Source of the DNA: an uncultured Nitrosopumilales archaeon
GTDB taxonomy: Archaea; Thermoproteota; Nitrososphaeria; Nitrososphaerales; CAYNJB01
Assembly (NCBI GenBank): GCA_964397515.1
Contig: CAYNJB010000001.1
Span: forward strand, 1 to 29,380
Direction of reading: 5' to 3'
DNA length: 29,380 bases
The notes under the pieces are model-generated. The model was not told the DNA's origin, ran no database searches, and was given only the letters and a program-made list of their open reading frames with translations. Positions 1,356 to 29,380 of the stretch are shown here, one piece after another. A program made the position numbers and the translations under genes. Each line of letters begins with the position of its first letter. Position 1 is the stretch's first letter.

Positions 1356-1907
1356 TTAGATCAGATCTAATAACATCTTTACCGAAGGTTCTTCTATATG
1401 AACAGCTGCTGATTCTTTGAAAGATAGAAGCGAATTATTTTGAGAGTGTGAATCATAATATTCTTGAGATTGGATAGCCATCTCAAAAGCGTCAAGTTCA
1501 TGTAATATTTTCGCTTCCTTTGTTTTTCCAGCTATAAATTCATCCCAAATAGTCTTGTATCTATTACGTATTGTTAACGGAAATTTAGAAAAAATTTCAG
1601 CGGTTGCCAGTTTTTCTTCTGTTTCCTTGTTTCGACCTCTTCTAATTTGAGTAGGAGTAATATCACCGGTTACAGCCTCAGATAAATCATGGATTAGCGC
1701 CATTCTCATCATACGATCAGCATCAAGACCTAAAATATCTCCAATAAGAGCTGCTAGAATAGTAACTCGATAACTATGGTCTGCTACTGACTCTGGATCA
1801 GATATGTTAGCTTTCTCGACCCAACCGGCGCGAACAGTTTTTTTTAATTTCCCTGCTAAATATAAAATATCTATTAGAGATTTAGCCGTTTTTTTATTCA
1901 TCAACAT
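1356..1907 (-). CDS. HD-domain phosphohydrolase (YfbR/HDDC2-like 5'-deoxynucleotidase family)
   Basis: LKKTVRAGW, ESVADHSY, IHDLSEAVTGDI and late ELD Asp form the H..HD..D pattern of the HDDC2/YfbR family; 183 aa. Confidence 0.88.
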   Translation of the reverse strand: MLMNKKTAKSLIDILYLAGKLKKTVRAGWVEKANISDPESVADHSYRVTILAALIGDILGLDADRMMRMALIHDLSEAVTGDITPTQIRRGRNKETEEKLATAEIFSKFPLTIRNRYKTIWDEFIAGKTKEAKILHELDAFEMAIQSQEYYDSHSQNNSLLSFKESAAVHIEEPSVKMLLDLI

Positions 1908-3653: not shown

Positions 3654-4679
3654 TTAATTTATCCATTTCTCAAGACTGTTGGATATTTTCTTTTTTGATT
3701 CTGTCAATTTAACAATTGAAGATCTTATCCGTTCCTCTGAGAAATCTCGGTCTTTGGATAAGAAGTTAAGTAAGCCATCTTCATCAATATCATTCCAAGA
3801 AAAAGGTGGTGGAGAAATAACTTTTGGATTAAGGAAAATATCTCGGATTGATTCATAATTTATTTCTTTAAGCGCTTGTTTAATATCCGGTATTTTTTCT
3901 AAACATCTATACGATTTAATATATTTTATAGCTTTAGCAGGGCCAATGCCTTTGAATCCTCCTGGGTTAAAATCTGTGCCCAAGAGAATGCCAAAATCAA
4001 CTAATTGTTCCCTTGAGAGTTGAAGGCTGGATAGTACGTTTTGCAAAGTTAGTTCTTCTGGAGACAAAATAATGTAAATAGGCCTATTTGGGAGCTTTCT
4101 TTTCCCAGAGATTGTAATGTTCCTTAACAGTCTTTTTGCCCCGAATAGAATTGAGTCATAATCTTGGCTAACTGCATCAGTCGCTAAACCGATATTTGTT
4201 AGGTGAGCAGCAGTAGCTTCACCTTCAGAGGGGGCGTCAATCCAAGGTATACCTAAAAGTTGAAGTAAAGTTTTAGTGTCTTCAATCATATAGTTTCTAA
4301 GAACTGAAGTTGCTTGAGCATGTTTTTTTGCTTCTTTGAATTTACCTTTTGACAAAGCTTCTGTTAGTTTTATTTCAGCTTTTTCCTTAATTTTATGTCT
4401 ACGTGTAATTTCTGTTGATTTTAATTCAGATGGAGGCCCATCAAAAATATATACGGGTTTTATGTTCAAAGATAAGAGATTAACTGTTCGATAAAAAATT
4501 CCACTAAGATGACTAGTCACCCTGCCTTCATGGTCTCGAAGGGGTTCTCCTGCTTCACCTCGGATTATTGAAAGGAATTGATATAGAGCATTATAAGCAT
4601 CAATAGCAAAAATCCTACTAGACAGTGATTCTAAAGATACTTTCTTTCGTTGAACTATATCTCCAAGATTCACACCCAA
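3654..4679 (-). CDS. fen: Flap endonuclease 1
   Basis: MGV start, AIDAYNALYQFLSIIR, PVYIFDG, APSEGEA, SQDYDSILFG, GTDFN, GIGPAKA, C-terminal PIP-like SNSLEKWI; TTG start with GTGA 7 nt upstream. Confidence 0.97.
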   Translation of the reverse strand: MGVNLGDIVQRKKVSLESLSSRIFAIDAYNALYQFLSIIRGEAGEPLRDHEGRVTSHLSGIFYRTVNLLSLNIKPVYIFDGPPSELKSTEITRRHKIKEKAEIKLTEALSKGKFKEAKKHAQATSVLRNYMIEDTKTLLQLLGIPWIDAPSEGEATAAHLTNIGLATDAVSQDYDSILFGAKRLLRNITISGKRKLPNRPIYIILSPEELTLQNVLSSLQLSREQLVDFGILLGTDFNPGGFKGIGPAKAIKYIKSYRCLEKIPDIKQALKEINYESIRDIFLNPKVISPPPFSWNDIDEDGLLNFLSKDRDFSEERIRSSIVKLTESKKKISNSLEKWIN

Positions 4680-22059: not shown

Positions 22060-23190
22060 ATGGCGACATATAAAGTTCCAGTAATACCTGGAGATGGTGT
22101 AGGACCTGAAGTTATTTCCGAAGGAAAAAAAGTTATAGACACAGTTAGTGAAGTTGATAGTTTTGAGGTTAACTGGATTGAATATCCATTTGGATCAGAC
22201 CATTATTTAACGACAGGAGAGTTAATTAATGAAAATAGCTTAAAAGAACTTAAACAATATAGATCAATATATTTAGGTGCGTTAGGAGATCCAAGAGTAA
22301 CACCTGGAGTTTTAGAACTTGGAATTCTGTTAAAGCTTCGATTCTATATGGATGAATACATTAATCTTAGACCTGTTAAACTTTTTGAGGGAGTTCCAAC
22401 ACCACTTCAAGGGAAAACTGAGAAAGATGTCAATTTTACGGTTGTACGTGAAAATACTGAAGATTTCTACATAGGTATAGGATCAAAAATTAATAAAGGA
22501 AAAAGTAAAGAAGTGCATAACTTATTTAGAGAACTTTATACAATAAAATTCAATTTAGACATAGAAACGGACACTGATGAAATAGCATATCAAATAGGAG
22601 TTATAAGTCAAAAAGGAGCTGAGAGAGTTATTAAATATGCTTTTGATCTGGCAACTAAAACAAATCAAAACAAAGTTACATCTGTAGATAAAGCAAATGT
22701 TTTAACCCATTCTTATGGTCTATGGAGAAAAGTGTTTTCTCAAATTTCAACTAACTATTCAGATATAGAAACGGAGAGCATTTTTGTTGACGCAGCTGCT
22801 ATGTGGTTTGTTAAGAATCCTGAGTGGTTTAAAGTAATAGTGACACCCAATCTTTTTGGTGACATTCTGACAGATTTAGGGGCGATGATTCAGGGAGGGT
22901 TAGGAGTTGCACCTGGAGGTAACATTAATCCTGGTGGAACATCTACATTTGAACCTATTCATGGGTCAGCTCCCAAGTATAAAGGGAAAGAGCAGATTAA
23001 TCCTATAGCAACCATCTTAGCTGGGAGTATGCTTTTAGATAATCTAGGGCTTAATAAATCTGCAAATAAAATTGAAGAAGCAGTAAAACAAGTTCTTAGA
23101 GAGGGGAAAGTTAAGACACCTGATTTGGGTGGAAGATCTAAGACAAGCGAAGTAAGTGACGCAGTTATTTCTAATATTAGAAACTCATAG
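22060..23190 (+). CDS. leuB: 3-isopropylmalate dehydrogenase (isocitrate/isopropylmalate family)
   Basis: [50 protein letters not shown]; location in the BCAA cluster supports LeuB. Confidence 0.85.
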
Positions 23191-23213: not shown

Positions 23214-24722
23214 TTATTTGCCTTTTTTAATAAATAATTTGTTGATTCCGTTGAGAAGGGCTTCAACACTTGAGACTACAATATCTTCTCCAGTACTACG
23301 TGCTGAAGCAAAATTTCCTTTATTGTCTCCGACTTTAACAAGAACTTCAGACAAAGCTTCTGATCCCCCTGTTAAGGCTTCAAGTCGGTATTCTGTAAGA
23401 GAAATTTTAGCTATTTCTTCAGTAATTTTATGTATTGCTTTTACAGCTGCATCTACTGGTCCGACACCTGTTTCGGAAGCTACATAAATTTGGCCTTCAA
23501 GATCTATCTTTACTGACGCAGTAGGAACAACATTTGTTCCGGTCATCACTGAGAAATCAATTAATTTCACCTTTTTTTTACTTTCAACAGGGTTTTCAAC
23601 TATAGATCTAGATAATGCTTCAATATCTGAATCAGTTAAGGATCTTCCTTTATCACCCATTTCCTTAATTTGATTCATGATAATTTTAAGTTGTTCATCT
23701 GTGGGGGAGAAGCCAAGTTCATTAAGTTGAGATTTTATTCCATGAGTACCAGCATGTTTTCCTGCTTGAATCCACCTTCTTCGTCCTACAAGGTCTGGGT
23801 CGATAGGTTCGTAAGTAGTAGGCATGGATAATACACCATGGGTGTGAATGCCTGATTCATGACCGAAAGCATTGTCGCCTACAATAGCTTTGTTTGGTTG
23901 AACTACGACACCCGTCAGTTTTGATACGAGCCTGCTGGTTTCATAGATAAGCTTTGTATTTATTTTTGTTTTCTTTGAATAAAAACAATGAAGAGCCATA
24001 ACGACTTCTTCTAATGATGCGTTCCCTGCTCTTTCACCTATACCATTGACAGTAGCATGAATTTGTGATGCTCCAGCTTCAACAGCCGCAAGAGAATTTG
24101 CAACTGCTAGACCAAAATCATTATGGCAGTGAATAGCTATAGGTGTTTTAATAACAGATTTTATCTCTTTTACTAAGGAACTCATTTTTGATGGAGTTGC
24201 TACACCAACTGTGTCAGGAATGTTTATTCGATCAGCGCCTGCATTTACTACTTCCTTAAGAAATTTTTTTAGAAAATGTGGATCTGAACGAGTAGCGTCT
24301 TCAGCTGAAAATTCTACAGTTACTCCATGTTTTTTAGCATATTCAACTCCAGTAATTGCGTTCTTTAGAGCTTTAGCTTTAGTGATTTTTAGCTTATGTT
24401 TAAGATGTATATCAGATGTTGCTATAAATAAGTGAATACTTTCTACATCGCACGCTAGGGCTACATCTATATCTTTTTTGTCAACTCTAGCTAAGGCACA
24501 TATTTCGGCGTTCAAACCTGCTTTAGCAATAGATTTGACAGATTTGCGTTCTCCGCGTGAAGTTATTGGAAAACCAGCTTCTATAGCGTCTACACCAAGT
24601 GTATCAAGTCGTCTTGCAATCTCTAATTTCTCATCTACGGTTAGAGAGACTCCGGGTGTCTGTTCTCCATCACGGAGAGTGGTATCGAATATTCGAATAT
24701 GTTGATTTGTTTGTTTGGGTAT
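23214..24722 (-). CDS. leuA: 2-isopropylmalate synthase; start extended beyond the ORF-track call, no canonical start codon
   Basis: Frame is open upstream of the 24515 TTG and encodes IRIFDTTLRDGEQTPG...IEAGFP, then HCHND, GERAGNA, HESGIH and a regulatory domain (GVGPVDA, GGSEAL). The nearest upstream in-frame stop is at 24768-24770. ATA at 24722 is used as a provisional start (502 aa). Citramalate/homocitrate paralog status is not excluded. Confidence 0.88.
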   Translation of the reverse strand: MPKQTNQHIRIFDTTLRDGEQTPGVSLTVDEKLEIARRLDTLGVDAIEAGFPITSRGERKSVKSIAKAGLNAEICALARVDKKDIDVALACDVESIHLFIATSDIHLKHKLKITKAKALKNAITGVEYAKKHGVTVEFSAEDATRSDPHFLKKFLKEVVNAGADRINIPDTVGVATPSKMSSLVKEIKSVIKTPIAIHCHNDFGLAVANSLAAVEAGASQIHATVNGIGERAGNASLEEVVMALHCFYSKKTKINTKLIYETSRLVSKLTGVVVQPNKAIVGDNAFGHESGIHTHGVLSMPTTYEPIDPDLVGRRRWIQAGKHAGTHGIKSQLNELGFSPTDEQLKIIMNQIKEMGDKGRSLTDSDIEALSRSIVENPVESKKKVKLIDFSVMTGTNVVPTASVKIDLEGQIYVASETGVGPVDAAVKAIHKITEEIAKISLTEYRLEALTGGSEALSEVLVKVGDNKGNFASARSTGEDIVVSSVEALLNGINKLFIKKGK

Positions 24723-24727
24723 CGTAT

Positions 24728-25210
24728 TTACCCCCGTTGTAGAGCTGTAATGCCTGTTCGAGATATGTCACGTATGCCAAAACTTGATACTAGTTTAATG
24801 AAAGAATCAATTTTAGTTGGATCACCCGTAATTTCAACTGTTATGGTTTCATTTGATACGTCAACGATTCTACACCTATATATTTGGGAGAAATTCAGCA
24901 CATCTACTCTAGTTTTTTGATCTAAAACATTTAACTTGATCAAAGCTAGTTCTCTTACTACAGATGTTTGTTGTTCAAGTAAAGTTATTTTTACAACATC
25001 TATAAGTTTACCAAGTTGCTTTATTAGTTGTTCAACTGTTAATTCATCACCGTTTACAACTATGGTCATTTTGGCAAGTCCGGGTTTCTCTGTGCGCCCC
25101 ACGGTTATACTTTCTATATTGAAGCCTCTTCGTCTAAACATGTTTGAGGCTCTAAAAAGTACTCCCGGTTTGTTTTCAACGATAGTAGAAAGTATGTAAA
25201 GATCGCCCAT
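24728..25210 (-). CDS. ilvH: Acetolactate synthase small regulatory subunit (two ACT domains)
   Basis: VENKPGVL...FRRRGFNIESITVG, EQLIKQLGKLIDV, RELALIK, EITGD, RTGITALQRG. Confidence 0.95.
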   Translation of the reverse strand: MGDLYILSTIVENKPGVLFRASNMFRRRGFNIESITVGRTEKPGLAKMTIVVNGDELTVEQLIKQLGKLIDVVKITLLEQQTSVVRELALIKLNVLDQKTRVDVLNFSQIYRCRIVDVSNETITVEITGDPTKIDSFIKLVSSFGIRDISRTGITALQRG

Positions 25211-25214
25211 GATT

Positions 25215-26912
25215 TTATCTTATATCCTGTGAACTATATAATATGTCTTTTAGTCCTTTTCCTGGAGGTACAAACGGATATACATCTTCGTCAGGGGAAA
25301 CAGGGATGTCGATTACTGTAGGTACTTCGTTTCGTAACCCAGAACGTAAAGCTTTTTCTACTTCTTTAATAGATTGAGCTCTTATTCCTTCAGCTCCATA
25401 AGATTCAGCTAACTTTACGAAGTCAGGAGTATTTTTAAATTTAATAGCTGAATATCTTTTATCATAAAACAATCTTTGCCATTGTTCAACCAAGCCTAGA
25501 GATCTATTGTTTAATATAGCTACAATGATTGGTATTTTTTCTTCGACGCATACTGCCAACGAATTTTCGGTCATGCAGAAACTTCCATCTCCGGCAAGAT
25601 CAACTACAGGAACATCTGGTTTTGCAACTTTAGCTCCAATAGCAGCTGGAAAACCGAAACCCATTGTACCTAAACCTGTAGAGGTAATCCATGTTCGTGG
25701 TTTAATAACTTTATAATGCAATTCTGCAAACATCTGATGTTTTCCAACTTCAGTTGCAAGTATGCCTTCAGGAGGTAAAATTTCGCGGATTTTTTTAATA
25801 ATTTTAATAGTTTTTAGATTGGCCCAGTCCAAATCTTTGTTGTTCTTTAGTTCGTCTCTTACTTCATTAATTCTTTTTAACCACAGTGAGCCCCTTTTTC
25901 TTTTGATTTTAAGTCTTAAAGATTCATATATTTGAGTTAATGCAATTTTGGCGTCTCCAACTATAGGTAATTGTACCTGTTTATTTTTTCCGATCTCTGA
26001 AGGATCAATATCTATATGAATTATTTTTGCGTCTGGACAAAATTTGTTAAATAGTCCAGTAGTTCTATCGGAAAATCTTACTCCGACAGCTAAAACACAA
26101 TCAGCTTCACAAATTAATTTATTTCCCTCTGGAGTACCATGCATTCCAATTGGACCTAAAGATAATGGATGATTCTCTGGAAAACTTCCTTTTCCGATTA
26201 AAGTAGTTACTACTGGAACTAAAAGAAGTTCAACAATGCTCTGAAGTGACTCTGACGCATTACATAAAATGACTCCGCCTCCAGACAAAATAATTGGTTT
26301 TTCAGCGTTTAAGAGAAGAGCAGCTGCCCGTTCAATTTGTAGATGATGAGGCTCAATTGCAGGTTTGTATCCTCTAATGACAACTTTTTCTGGAAATTTA
26401 ATATTTGTTTTCTCTTGTTGAACATCTTTTGGTATATCGATTATAACTGGACCAGGTCTGCCAGTGGAAGCTATATGAAATGCTTTCTTTAAATCATAAG
26501 GAATTTCAGCTGAATTCATTGGTTGGAAAGTATATTTTGTTATCGCAGTTGTTATCCCGATAATATCAGTTTCTTGGAATGAGTCCTTGCCAATAAGAGA
26601 TTTTGCAACTTGGCCTGTTATAGCAATAATTGGAGACGAGTCAGCGTAAGCAGTAGCTATACCTGTAACAAGATTTGTTGCTCCTGGACCAGAAGTTGCA
26701 AAGCAAACTCCAACTTTCCCACTTGCTCGAGCATAACCATCGGCCATATGAGCTGCAGATTGCTCATGTCTACAAAGTATATGACGTATATCACTATTAT
26801 AGAGTTCATCATATATAGGAAGAGTTGCACCTCCGGGTATACCAAAGATATTTGATACACCTTCACGCTTTAATGATTTCATTAAAGCTTTAGCGCCAAT
26901 CATTTCAACCAA
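25215..26912 (-). CDS. ilvB: Acetolactate synthase large catalytic subunit
   Basis: FGIPGGA, RHEQ, TSGPGATN, GQV, FQE, GRPGPV, GLGTMGFG, GDGSF...NNRSLGLV TPP motif; TTG at 26912 or ATG at 26903. Confidence 0.96.
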   Translation of the reverse strand: MVEMIGAKALMKSLKREGVSNIFGIPGGATLPIYDELYNSDIRHILCRHEQSAAHMADGYARASGKVGVCFATSGPGATNLVTGIATAYADSSPIIAITGQVAKSLIGKDSFQETDIIGITTAITKYTFQPMNSAEIPYDLKKAFHIASTGRPGPVIIDIPKDVQQEKTNIKFPEKVVIRGYKPAIEPHHLQIERAAALLLNAEKPIILSGGGVILCNASESLQSIVELLLVPVVTTLIGKGSFPENHPLSLGPIGMHGTPEGNKLICEADCVLAVGVRFSDRTTGLFNKFCPDAKIIHIDIDPSEIGKNKQVQLPIVGDAKIALTQIYESLRLKIKRKRGSLWLKRINEVRDELKNNKDLDWANLKTIKIIKKIREILPPEGILATEVGKHQMFAELHYKVIKPRTWITSTGLGTMGFGFPAAIGAKVAKPDVPVVDLAGDGSFCMTENSLAVCVEEKIPIIVAILNNRSLGLVEQWQRLFYDKRYSAIKFKNTPDFVKLAESYGAEGIRAQSIKEVEKALRSGLRNEVPTVIDIPVSPDEDVYPFVPPGKGLKDILYSSQDIR

Positions 26913-26969
26913 AATACTAAATCATCTTCATATAACAACAAATTTACATTTGAATCTTTGGGTATGAGT

Positions 26970-27068
26970 TTATAGCACTACCAAGAGGGATAGCTGGGCA
27001 GATATTAGTCTGAGAACTAGGCAAGTGTAGACCAGACTTTCTTTGAATGTGCAAATTATTCCCTGCAT
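26970..27068 (-). CDS. Candidate BCAA-rich leader peptide (32 aa) upstream of ilvB, absent from the ORF track
   Basis: ATG...TAA, MQGIICTFKESLVYTCLVLRLISAQLSLLVVL*; 8 Leu, 4 Val, 3 Ile; stop 57 nt before ilvB on the same strand; TATA-like CTTAAAAA at 27100-27093. Confidence 0.55.
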   Translation of the reverse strand: MQGIICTFKESLVYTCLVLRLISAQLSLLVVL

Positions 27069-27092
27069 TATGCATTAGGTTTAGGTTTTAAG

Positions 27093-27110
27093 TTTTTAAG
27101 TTTTATTTTT
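27093..27110 (-). promoter_or_regulatory. Putative promoter for the leader-ilvB-ilvH-leuA transcript
   Basis: A-rich BRE-like tract then CTTAAAAA (27100-27093); usual archaeal spacing puts the TSS near 27068-27070, at the leader ATG. Other TATA-like boxes exist nearby (e.g. 27158-27151). Confidence 0.4.
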
Positions 27111-27230
27111 TTTAATTTTTTATTTTATTATTGTAATTAATGAATGATATATATTAAACAAGTTACTTGGATATTTGCTACTTTTTTTCCGTAACTGATA
27201 AAAAAGACCGCGTTTCAATATAGAATCACT

Positions 27231-28889
27231 TTGAGGAGCGATGTTATTAAAAAAGGGTTTGATAGGGCCCCGCATAGAAGTCTTTTAAAGGCGTTGGGAC
27301 TTGTTGATAGTGATTTAGAAAAACCGTTTATAGGGATTGCTAATTCATTTGTAGAAATAGTTCCAGGCCATAGTCATTTACATGAACTCGGTAAGATTGT
27401 GAAGCAAGGAGTAAGAGAAGCAGGTGGTATGCCTTTTGAGTTTAACACAATAGCTGTAGATGATGGGATTGCTATGGGTCACTTGGGGATGAGATATTCC
27501 CTCCCAAGCAGGGAATTGATTGCTGATTCGATAGAAACAATGGTTCAAGCACATTGTTTTGATGGACTTGTTTGCATAACTAATTGTGATAAAATTGTTC
27601 CTGGAATGCTTATGGGTGCAGTACGAGTTAACATACCGACTATTATTGTTAGTGGAGGACCAATGCTAGCTGGGAAGACATCTAAAGACAAAGTGATTGA
27701 TCTTTCTTCTGTGTTTGAAGCGGTTGGTTCTCACCAGGCTGGACTAATAACAGATTCTGAATTCAAAGAAATAGAGGATTTAGCTTGTCCAAGTTGTGGT
27801 TCCTGTTCCGGTCTTTTCACTGCAAACTCAATGAATTGTTTGTGTGAAGCCTTGGGTATATCTTTACCAGGTAATGGAACTATACTTGCGGTTTCTCCGG
27901 ATAGAATTAAACTTGCTAAAAAAGCTGGACAGAGTATCCTTAGATTAATTGATCTAGATTTGAAACCTAGGGACATTATCACAATGGAATCTATAGACAA
28001 TGCTATGATTTTAGATATGGCAATGGGTGGATCAACTAACACAGTATTACATCTCTTGGCCGTTGCTAAAGAATCAGGAATAGAATATTCATTAAAGAGA
28101 GTTGATGATCTAACTGGAAAAGTACCTCAGATATGTAAAGTTAGTCCAGCGTCACAATATCACATGGAAGATGTGGATAGAGCAGGCGGAGTAAGCGCTA
28201 TTCTCAAAGAGATAAGTAAAAAAAATATTCTACAATTAGATCAGGTCACTGTTACTACTGAAACCCTTGCAAATAACATTAGAAATTCTGAAGTAAAAGA
28301 TAAATTAGTAATTCATTCTATAGATAATCCATATCGGTCTAATGGAGGGCTTGCTGTTTTTTACGGAAATTTAGCTCCTGAGGGAGCTTTACTTAAAATT
28401 GGAGCAGTGGAATCAGACATTATCCATACAGGTAAATCGGTTATTTTTAATTCACAAGACTCAGCTATCAAAGGAATTAAATCAGGTTTAATTAAAAAAG
28501 GTGATGTTGTAGTTATTAGATATGAGGGACCAAAAGGTGGTCCAGGAATGCCAGAGATGTTAGCACCGACAGCTATGATTGTAGGACAGGGACTTGGTAA
28601 GGATGTTGCACTTCTGACTGATGGAAGATTTTCAGGGGCAACTAGAGGGATTTGTATTGGACATATTTCACCAGAAGCCGCACTAGGAGGCCCAATAGGA
28701 TTTCTTGAAGAGGGGGACATAATAACAATAGATTTGCCTAAAAGAAAAGTTGATGTAAAAATTTCCAGTGAAGAACTTGAAGATAGGAGAAAAAGATGGG
28801 TTGCACCAAATCCGAAAATTTCAACAGGATATCTTGCAAGGTATACAAAGTTTGTTTCTTCGGCTAGTAATGGAGCGGTACTGCAATAA
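27231..28889 (+). CDS. ilvD: Dihydroxy-acid dehydratase
   Basis: [77 protein letters not shown]; TTG start. Confidence 0.97.
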
Positions 28890-28931
28890 TATATCTATTA
28901 TTAGAATTCCGATAAAAAATTAGTTAGATAG

Positions 28932-28946
28932 CGAAAAATTTAAATC
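28932..28946 (+). promoter_or_regulatory. Putative BRE/TATA promoter for cimA
   Basis: CGAAAAA directly followed by TTTAAATC (28939-28946); a good archaeal BRE-TATA match implying a TSS near 28968-28971. Confidence 0.6.
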
Positions 28947-28985
28947 TAAACACTTAAACTGGAACTTCAAATAGGTGAAAAGCGA

Positions 28986-29380
28986 ATCGATTCAACCATT
29001 GAAGTTCTTGACACAACATTAAGAGATGGATCTCAAAGTTACGGTGTATCATTTTCTCTTCAAGATAAATTAAGTATAGTCAAAAGACTTGACCAAACTG
29101 GAATTCAATATATAGAAGGAGGTTGGCCTGGATCAAATCCTAAAGATGTAAGTTTCTTTAAAAAAGCTAAGAAACTTAAACTAGACAATTCTGAAATAGT
29201 TGCATTTTCTAGTACAAAACATAAAAAAAACTCAGTAACTAAAGACTTGGCACTGAATTCTATAATAGAAGCAGAAGTAGAAACTGCTGTGATTTTTGGA
29301 AAAACCTGGAAACTTCATATTGATAAGGTCTTAAACTTAAGCATTAAAGATAATATCAGGATAATAGAAGAATCTATTTC
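28986..29380 (+). CDS. cimA: Citramalate synthase (LeuA-related, TIGR00977-like), 3'-truncated by the window edge, no canonical start codon
   Basis: IEVLDTTLRDGSQ, YIEGGWPGSNPKD, AFSST, IFGKTW; the GGWPGSNPKD signature is typical of this citramalate synthase subfamily. In-frame stop at 28947-28949; ATC at 28986 is used as a provisional start. Confidence 0.8.
   Translation, partial: MDSTIEVLDTTLRDGSQSYGVSFSLQDKLSIVKRLDQTGIQYIEGGWPGSNPKDVSFFKKAKKLKLDNSEIVAFSSTKHKKNSVTKDLALNSIIEAEVETAVIFGKTWKLHIDKVLNLSIKDNIRIIEESI

Follow-up and report, generated by a model that had tools for sequence, protein, structure and literature searches.

Among the genes for branched-chain amino acid (BCAA) synthesis in an uncultured marine archaeon, two pose the question of where, and at which codon, their translation begins. 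Both lie in a BCAA gene cluster on contig CAYNJB010000001.1 of a marine member of the Nitrososphaeria (Thaumarchaeota; 34% GC), of which a stretch of 29,380 nucleotides, referred to here as the window, was analysed. Gene A encodes 2-isopropylmalate synthase (LeuA) and gene B citramalate synthase (CimA), and an initial annotation had proposed that these two genes alone lack a canonical start, the best candidate in each being an AUH isoleucine codon (AUA, AUC or AUU). The evidence presented here suggests that both genes are intact and probably start at such near-cognate codons, in each case behind a strong Shine-Dalgarno (SD) motif at the usual spacing. For gene B, the predicted start is an AUC that appears to be retained over deep divergence, while for gene A an AUA is favoured. 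The two genes are placed as follows, codons being named throughout by the position of their first base.

23214..24722, minus strand: gene A, 2-isopropylmalate synthase (LeuA), 502 codons if ATA 24722 is the start
28986..29380, plus strand: gene B, citramalate synthase (CimA), first 131 codons, continuing beyond the window end

Two reading frames without a canonical start

The names LeuA and CimA proved to be correct, as both proteins pass curated family cut-offs. Gene A scores 569 bits against NF002086 (equivalog cut-off 532) and 694 bits against NF002085 (cut-off 517), and its product aligns with the LeuA structure of N. meningitidis (3rmj) from residue 4. The 131 residues of gene B inside the window match positions 2-128 of the TIGR00977 profile, and a full-length conspecific copy (locus L070, 528 aa) reaches 599 bits against an equivalog cut-off of 450.

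The frame of gene A is interrupted by an in-frame stop at 24770 and open from 24767, and the first ATG, GTG or TTG (NTG) codon within it is TTG 24515, which sits 57 codons downstream of the DTTLRDGEQ catalytic motif (24686 onwards). Its in-frame ATH codons are ATC 24764, which falls inside ilvH, ATA 24722, ATT 24698 and ATA 24692. The frame of gene B is open from 28950, after a TAA at 28947, and contains no NTG at all before its DTTLRDGSQ motif; the candidates upstream of this motif are CTG 28959, ATA 28971, ATC 28986 and ATT 28998. ATA 24722 and ATC 28986, whose outer bases are the positions 24720 and 28988 named in the initial annotation, also emerge as the best candidates here by SD pairing and geometry and, for ATC 28986, by conservation.

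When the window was scanned for long open reading frames (ORFs) with at least 20 NTG-free codons at the 5′ end, the sole real gene returned was gene A, the four other matches being antisense shadows; such a scan would miss a non-NTG start with an NTG close downstream. Every other gene in the window has an NTG start near its N-terminus (ATG or TTG for ilvB, ATG for ilvH, TTG for ilvD and ATG for leuB), and within the limit of the scan the claim that only LeuA and CimA lack canonical starts is therefore upheld, as is that of normal starts for these four genes. Among the comparison loci, all of which were fetched around BCAA genes, orthologues without a nearby NTG numbered 0 of 45 for ilvH, 1 of 29 for ilvB, 0 of 21 for ilvD and 0 of 11 for leuB (1 of 106 in total). 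In the wider TIGR00977 family, an NTG precedes the motif by 4-12 codons in about 75 of 80 metagenome loci; these were retrieved in a metagenome scan with the gene B alignment and are mostly distant, non-thaumarchaeal members (42-47% identity), which served as a control only. A low density of NTG codons in the first 60-90 codons was also considered as a special feature and rejected, because ATG-start orthologues are equally NTG-poor in that region.

The initial annotation had named a sequencing artefact as one way in which its proposal could fail. Twelve independent assemblies of the same species (L070-L081, from JGI, TARA/ENA and Logan), the work of different groups with different assemblers, are identical in the 5′ regions of both genes save for three point differences, and this agreement excludes such an artefact. 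The reading frames of 502 (gene A) and 528 (gene B) codons are intact, and the ratios of synonymous to nonsynonymous differences within the species, 10:7 for gene A and 11:9 for gene B, depart widely from the ratio of roughly 1:3 that would hold in the absence of constraint, few as the counts are. Both genes appear to be under constraint, with no sign of neutral decay.

The two favoured codons stand out by their SD pairing, calculated with an assumed anti-SD sequence, GAUCACCUCCU. The energy is -10.0 kcal/mol for ATA 24722, the strongest in the window, and -8.3 kcal/mol for ATC 28986, which places them in the top 0.7% and the top 2.2%, respectively, of the 4956 ATH codons in the window; the best NTG start in the window reaches -8.5 kcal/mol. 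The remaining in-frame ATH codons of both genes range from -1.3 to -3.8 kcal/mol, with ATT 24698 and ATA 24692 both at -1.3 kcal/mol, and the other start candidates of gene B lie between -1.8 and -3.3 kcal/mol.

The start codon of citramalate synthase

The elements around the predicted start of gene B are listed first.

28986..28988, plus strand: ATC, proposed gene B start, opening the string ATC GAT T that is invariant in eight lineages, with stops upstream
28973..28978, plus strand: AGGTGA, SD of gene B, read from the sequence, 7 nt before ATC
28983, plus strand: polymorphic base, C in the window and T in strains L070/L080, changing CGA to an in-frame TGA that abuts ATC
28939..28945, plus strand: TTTAAAT, TATA-box-like element of gene B, starting 47 nt upstream of ATC
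28984..28993, plus strand: GAATCGATTC, perfect 10-nt palindrome spanning the ATC start, single copy in the window
28998..29000, plus strand: ATT, second in-frame isoleucine codon of gene B, an ordinary codon with an SD pairing of -1.8 kcal/mol

ATC 28986 is retained well beyond the species. In ten Nitrososphaerota lineages read as DNA, the gene B start is ATC in eight, ATA in one (L166) and ATG in one (L085), and the ATA of L166 aligns with the first residue of an 88%-identical relative (P0136, MELDNY...). All eight ATC lineages share the string ATC GAT T without change, and each carries a G-rich SD-like motif 4-7 nt upstream of it:

Window: AGGTGA
L082/L083: GAGGTAA
L013: AAGGTGGG
L165: GGGGGT
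L172: AAGGGGGC
L167/L168: AAGGGGTG
L170/L171 (Caldarchaeum-type): GGGGGTGG
L173: GGTGGGGGTGG

The sister lineage (L082-L084) is syntenic with the window and shares 62% (gene B) and 72% (gene A) protein identity with it. Its gene B begins gAGGTAAacgga ATC GAT TCA/TCG AAG ATT/ATC GAT GTG CTT GAT, with only synonymous differences between L082 and L083 downstream of ATC and a 2-nt indel relative to the window upstream of it; gene callers chose GTG instead in this lineage, giving (M/V)LDTT. In several lineages, the frame is closed immediately before the codon, as an in-frame stop lies no more than two codons upstream of ATC in L013 (TGA), L165 (TAA TGA), L172 (TAA, with one codon between), L170/L171 (TGA) and L070/L080 (TGA). 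In the last two strains, which belong to the same species as the window, this TGA excludes ATA 28971 and CTG 28959 as starts.

The promoter is similarly placed in these lineages, each of the eight having a TATA-like box that starts 44-50 nt before ATC. Together with the usual archaeal geometry, the distance from box to codon would leave a leader of about 15-20 nt carrying the SD. The position of the box also means that two upstream in-frame codons used by gene callers, GTG in L167 and TTG in L173, fall inside the promoter. These observations point to AUC 28986 as the start of the citramalate synthase gene, conserved across much of the phylum, and the arrangement appears to be old, as it extends over many Nitrososphaerota lineages including Caldarchaeum-like ones.

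Public gene calls depart from this start, and from that of gene A, in a systematic manner. Standard gene callers accept only ATG, GTG and TTG. Every public call for gene B in this species is 441 aa long, and the cluster holding gene A (P0001) has nine members, of which eight, the one from the window's own NCBI record among them, are 433 aa and the ninth is a 110-aa fragment. Neither the 433-aa nor the 441-aa call contains the N-terminal DTTLRDG(E/S)Q motif, which opens the barrel in solved LeuA/CimA structures. In a survey of the 120 closest homologue clusters of gene B, 113 of them informative, 29 are called at or inside the motif ((M/V/L)LDTT, (M/L)DTT or (L/M)RDG) and 16 are over-extended upstream through an apparent translated SD (...GGxR-IDY/IDS...), so that about 46 of the 113 (about 40%), the window's own included, are mis-called. 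DNA was read for eight of the mis-called clusters, and in each of them ATC or ATA stands where it was expected. When ordered by neighbour joining, the mis-called clusters fall mainly into two large groups, 'IDS', to which the window belongs, and 'IDY' (Caldarchaeum-like and hot-spring), with canonical-M members of the gene B family interspersed among them. Two of these members, P0201 and P0223, have M at the ATC position, which may stand for a true ATG or for an ATC annotated as a start. Truncated LeuA and CimA calls can pass for pseudogenes and feed wrong auxotrophy predictions, and truncated or extended calls alike put false N-termini into protein families.

Further features of the gene B start were also considered. 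The 8-nt core of the palindrome, AATCGATT, does not vary among the eight ATC lineages and might explain why the codon is always ATC there, never ATT or ATA. A role for the palindrome as a shared operator was rejected: the window has a single copy, no more than chance would give, and the other BCAA promoters lack it. RNA folding at the gene B start gave a minimum free energy of -8.4 kcal/mol, no better than that of shuffled sequences (z +0.7), and supported no riboswitch-like, SD-masking or conserved fold. Lastly, an out-of-frame NTG 4 nt before ATC (ATGA/GTGA/TTGA ATC in L013, L165, L170 and L070) was considered as the real start, followed by a frameshift, and was rejected as a by-product of the in-frame TGA; it is missing from the window, L082, L172, L167 and L173.

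The start codon of leuA

For gene A, the relevant elements are the following.

24720..24722, minus strand: ATA, proposed gene A start, with a strong SD, 5 nt after the ilvH stop
24730..24735, minus strand: GGGGGT, SD-like run in the last ilvH codons (CGG GGG TAA), read from the sequence, 7 nt before ATA
24696..24698, minus strand: ATT, alternative and less likely gene A start, with no SD, 29 nt from the ilvH stop
24513..24515, minus strand: TTG used by public callers for gene A (433 aa), internal, 57 codons past the motif

The GGGGGT run is formed by codons that are infrequent in the window's genes, where CGG makes up 3.6% of arginine codons and GGG 12% of glycine codons, and it is identical to the SD-like string that precedes the gene B ATC in L165. 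The geometry at the junction with ilvH also distinguishes between the candidates. In 15 relatives, leuA starts between -4 and +8 nt from the stop of the upstream gene (ilvH, or an inserted ilvC), as ATGA overlaps or gaps of 1-8 nt; the 5-nt gap of ATA 24722 falls inside this range, and the 29-nt gap of ATT 24698 falls outside it. ATA 24722 would place 12 residues before DTTLRDG, homologues typically having 8-13, whereas ATT 24698 would leave only 4, a number found in 2 of 120 homologues. The residues QTNQH, which separate the two codons, are aligned to QTNR in the LeuA structure 3rmj, a weak hint that they are coding. On these grounds ATA 24722 is favoured as the start of gene A, albeit on thinner evidence than the ATC of gene B.

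The start codon of leuA varies among relatives. It is TTG in the sister lineage (GGAGG + 12 nt; MVDRC...), ATG in most Thaumarchaeota and GTG in L012, while the leuA of L009 (about 1715-1745, plus strand) has no NTG and reads CTG GTA GAT CCA GCT ATC GTA AGG ATT TTT GAT. The CTG of L009, with GGGGAG 5 nt upstream, aligns with the TTG of L082 (TTG GTA GAC AGA TGC ATT AGA ATC TTT GAT), and is likely to be the start of that gene. The ATA of gene A thus appears to be species-specific and recent, at a position where the start codon is evolutionarily labile. Conservation of AUH starts, which the initial annotation had proposed to look for in both genes, was borne out for the AUC of CimA (8 of the 10 lineages read as DNA) but not for the AUA of LeuA. 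Because the ATA of gene A is unconserved while the ATC of gene B is deep, the pair would consist of an ancient AUC and a recent AUA, rather than forming a shared device.

The steps by which the two genes would be translated can be outlined. Gene B would be transcribed from its own TATA-box promoter, and AGGUGA in its short leader would pair with the 16S rRNA 3′ end, thereby setting AUC 28986 in the P site. The initiator Met-tRNA would then read AUC with a third-position mismatch, and CimA would begin M-D-S-T-I-E-V-L-D-T-T. Gene A, as the third gene of an ilvB-ilvH-leuA operon, would be initiated at AUA 24722, led by the GGGGGU run 7 nt upstream, and ribosomes terminating on ilvH would probably aid this initiation (translational coupling). 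In both cases, the rate of initiation is expected to lie below that of AUG, the strong SD offsetting part of the loss. A logic specific to isoleucine is not indicated, as the initiator tRNA would be expected to decode a near-cognate start as methionine; a tRNA scan of the window returned no tRNA genes, unusual initiators included. Thaumarchaeota are known to combine leaderless first genes with other genes that are led by ribosome-binding sites (PMC6028130).

The other genes of the cluster are arranged around gene A and gene B as follows.

26903 (ATG) or 26912 (TTG)..25215, minus strand: ilvB
25210 (ATG)..24728, minus strand: ilvH, with its stop TAA at 24730-24728
22060..23190, on the other strand from gene A, which it adjoins: leuB, ATG start
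27231..28889, plus strand: ilvD, TTG start

Gene order varies among relatives, L001-L007 and L012 differing from the window and L008-L025. In some Nitrososphaeria, ilvC stands between ilvH and leuA, its TGA overlapping the leuA ATG, and in the window's lineage ilvC is placed after gene B (L070, positions 1-843). Just downstream of the ilvD TTG 27231 (MRSDVIKKG...), GAGGAG, CG and an ATG at 27241 form an SD-like motif with an out-of-frame ATG (27231-27245). The divergent intergenic region between ilvB and ilvD (26913-27230, 318 nt) is very AT-rich, with stuttering repeats (ttaggtttaggttttaagtttttaagtttt) and long T runs, and is presumably where the candidate leader peptide of the initial annotation is located. 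GC content ranges from 0.28 to 0.43 across the window, whose closest matches are Nitrososphaerales and Nitrososphaeria metagenome-assembled genomes, with identical contigs in TARA and JGI ocean metagenomes.

Competing readings and related systems

Several points weigh against near-cognate initiation at these codons. Gene B lineages with canonical starts carry an internal hydrophobic residue (L, I or F) at the ATC position, after 1-5 residues, so that 'I' can be matched to an initiator 'M' in some clades only; the ATC lineages begin right at this conserved hydrophobic position. In gene A, no in-frame stop lies between ATA 24722 and the other candidates, the frame being open to 24767, and no informative polymorphism or orthologue conservation separates ATA 24722 from ATT 24698. 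The 16S rRNA 3′ end, for which the anti-SD sequence was assumed, lies outside the window. Two marine metatranscriptome runs, the only ones found and sharing no words with the locus, gave zero depth over both start regions. Finally, archaeal aIF1 is reported to disfavour non-canonical start codons (PMC6237735), which would also make such starts potentially sensitive to the fidelity of initiation.

Of the alternatives, the one that fares best concerns gene A alone, and holds that its ATA has no function of its own, being a mildly harmful change that was recently fixed in an AT-rich (34% GC), streamlined genome and is tolerated by virtue of the SD and of coupling to ilvH. This is a serious possibility, although the odds are somewhat against it. 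The species-specific occurrence of ATA, the variety of codons (TTG in the sister lineage, ATG, GTG or CTG in others) at this labile position and the low GC content of the window are all as it would predict. Conversely, ATA is fixed in 12 of 12 assemblies from different samples, and the unusually strong SD, built from rare codons, resembles compensation or tuning.

The proposal made in the initial annotation, that the weak starts are a regulatory device, in which AUH initiation responds to stringency (the level or state of aIF1/aIF2) or to BCAA supply and so throttles both pathway entries, appears unlikely on the present evidence. It draws on the retention of the gene B ATC over deep divergence, with no reversion to ATG, on the independent ATT/ATC starts of Methanosarcinales CimA, on an ATA-start ilvB behind a perfect AGGAGGTGA in one Nitrososphaeria lineage, and on the CTG-start leuA of one relative; in addition, the combination of a strong SD with a weak codon suggests initiation that is tuned, not decayed. 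However, LeuA and CimA are not initiation factors and would form no feedback loop of the infC/eIF1 style, the gene A codon is unconserved, and RNA folding predicts no conserved structure around the start of gene B. The clustering of examples in one pathway is itself biased, as all come from loci chosen around BCAA genes, and under a uniform criterion the count of 2 in about 110 BCAA ORFs, against 0 in about 150 others, is not significant. This screen for non-NTG starts drew on 367 kb from Nitrososphaerota loci with about 260 long ORFs, a BCAA-biased and underpowered sample, and retained only the ilvB of L006 and the gene B of L013; the other ORFs flagged in it have plausible TTG starts or overlap with the upstream gene.

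The L006 gene, from a hot-spring Nitrososphaeria lineage (about 3725-3765, plus strand), reads AGGAGGTGA-ATTTAA-ATA GCC AAA, with a perfect SD and with in-frame TGA and TAA just upstream. It is the single ilvB exception in the NTG control; in L001/L002, the codon aligned with this ATA is ATG. The related L005 (about 3735-3775, plus strand) also has this ATA in ilvB, although its SD contains an in-frame GTG. A selected role is plausible in view of the long retention of ATC, the Methanosarcinales parallel and the ATA-start ilvB. The most far-reaching form of the idea, in which AUH starts on BCAA entry enzymes (CimA, LeuA and sometimes IlvB) would be a recurrent, selected form of archaeal control, arisen independently in Nitrososphaerota and Methanosarcinales and coupling Ile/Leu flux to aIF1/aIF2 stringency or to upstream-ORF translation beyond a constant low level of expression, is rather speculative and appears improbable.

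Initiation at the second in-frame isoleucine codon of each gene, ATT 24698 (MRIFDTT...) and ATT 28998 (MEVLDTT...), is improbable. The TIGR02090 and TIGR00977 profile matches do begin at about these codons, a few homologues are called VRIFDTT or MEVLDTT, and NCBI picks the second ATT in the CimA of Methanosalsum (MQFLDTT). Yet neither codon has an SD, the codon at 28998 varies between ATT, ATC, GTT and GTC among lineages in the manner of an ordinary codon while ATC 28986 is invariant, and ATT 24698 lies beyond the distance from the ilvH stop that is seen in relatives. There is very little to recommend an IlvH-LeuA fusion, for which tRNA-Gly would slip back by one base at the G5 run beside the ilvH stop (CGG GGG UAA) and so enter the frame of gene A. 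Gene A is indeed in the -1 frame, open from 24767, and the homopolymer run does stand beside the stop, but the ilvH frame contains neither an X XXY YYZ heptamer nor any obvious stimulatory structure, the genes are clearly separate and coupled in relatives, and no IlvH-LeuA fusion is found among the homologues listed. Furthermore, the same GGGGGT serves as SD before the gene B ATC in L165, and gene B displays the ATH starts of this lineage without any upstream ORF. Finally, the truncated public calls might suggest errors of sequencing or assembly, or pseudogenes left without a start, but this is effectively refuted by the identical 5′ ends in 12 assemblies, the intact frames, the non-neutral ratios of synonymous to nonsynonymous differences and the persistence of ATC across lineages.

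Initiation at AUC 28986 and AUA 24722 behind strong SD motifs remains the preferred reading, and it has a parallel in the (R)-citramalate synthase CimA of Methanosarcinales, which is of the MJ1392 (M. jannaschii CimA) type and an orthologue of gene A (about 49% identity). As in the window, this is a DRE-TIM entry enzyme without an in-frame NTG before DTTLRDGEQ. The cimA sequence reads TGA GGG ATT ACA TTA TTC GAA AAT ATC CGG in Methanococcoides, ATG TGA GGG ATT ATA in Methanosalsum and GAA GGG ATC GTT TTA TTT in ANME-2. The NCBI proteins begin MTLFENIRFLDTT, and the group pattern, M(T/A/V/I)LFEN(I/V)RFLDTT, corresponds to ATT/ATC read as Met. Annotation is nonetheless inconsistent: at least five start choices occur for the same cimA among the NCBI entries P0249-P0300 (M(T/A/V/I)LFEN, MFENIRF, MRFLDTT/MQFLDTT, MDTT and deeper truncations), and calls from other pipelines are mostly truncated to MDTT, (M/L)RDGEQ or later, as in the window's species. 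Unlike the conserved case in the window, the Methanosarcinales CimA is an A-type paralogue and not a TIGR00977 member, and its purine tract (GAAGGG/TGAGGG) abuts the ATY codon, with no SD at normal spacing. The mechanism in Methanosarcinales may thus differ from the thaumarchaeal one.

Two further observations were made on these genes. The motif (G/T)(A/G)AGGG-ATY abuts the presumed ATT/ATC start in both LeuA-family paralogues of genomes that appear to be of Methanosarcinales type, in A-type loci (L038-L040, L029 and others) and in the B-type metagenome loci L100 and L138; in L138, no NTG precedes the motif of the enzyme. In the ANME-2 loci L029, L035, L037 and L048, and in L034, the stretch 40-70 nt before DTTLRDGEQ holds a good SD (GGTGA) and, 6 nt after it, an ATG in a different frame from cimA. 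This ATG opens a conserved ORF of 9-10 codons (M-A/T-RRDRFIC-Q), which ends 4 nt before the second in-frame ATC, the main frame being without NTG; it could be an upstream ORF with re-initiation.

To our knowledge, archaea offer few documented cases of conserved initiation at codons other than AUG, GUG and UUG. The literature searched gave no account of AUH starts on archaeal leuA or cimA, and the passages found of a ribosome profiling (Ribo-seq) paper on M. mazei make no mention of cimA (PMC11456600). AUH starts of archaeal CimA are already present, inconsistently, in public annotation. What is apparently new is the deeply conserved AUC on Nitrososphaerota citramalate synthase, together with the species-level AUA on LeuA, both systematically mis-called. 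An AUC kept over phylum-scale divergence offers a natural substrate for studying the fidelity with which aIF1/aIF2 select start codons, and the parallel ATT/ATC starts of Methanosarcinales CimA occur where genetics and Ribo-seq exist. Aside from its practical value for annotation, the case allows one to ask whether the entry enzymes of pathways are translationally tuned.

Near-cognate AUH starts as such are familiar from infC and pcnB of E. coli and from translation table 11. Both infC, which encodes IF3, and pcnB start at AUU, and a conserved AUU or AUH codon lowers initiation and sensitises it to start-codon proofreading; since IF3 itself discriminates against AUU, infC regulates its own expression. 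The window genes resemble infC and pcnB in being functional genes with an AUH start, which in gene B is conserved. They differ from infC in that LeuA and CimA play no role in initiation and do not themselves set start-codon fidelity, so that any control by stringency would be open-loop, and in that the factors concerned would be archaeal aIF1/aIF2 rather than bacterial ones. In eukaryotes, the autoregulation of eIF1 and eIF5 through poor context, and near-cognate initiation more generally, set expression by the stringency with which imperfect starts are rejected, and archaea possess the homologue aIF1. Unlike the eukaryotic case, the starts in the window are positioned by an SD, with no scanning and no evident feedback loop. 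Lastly, the location of the gene A ATA 5 nt past the ilvH stop is reminiscent of the termination-reinitiation coupling of adjacent prokaryotic genes (reviewed in PMC12548453). Described cases use canonical starts, while gene A would use AUA, and gene B is coupled to no upstream ORF.

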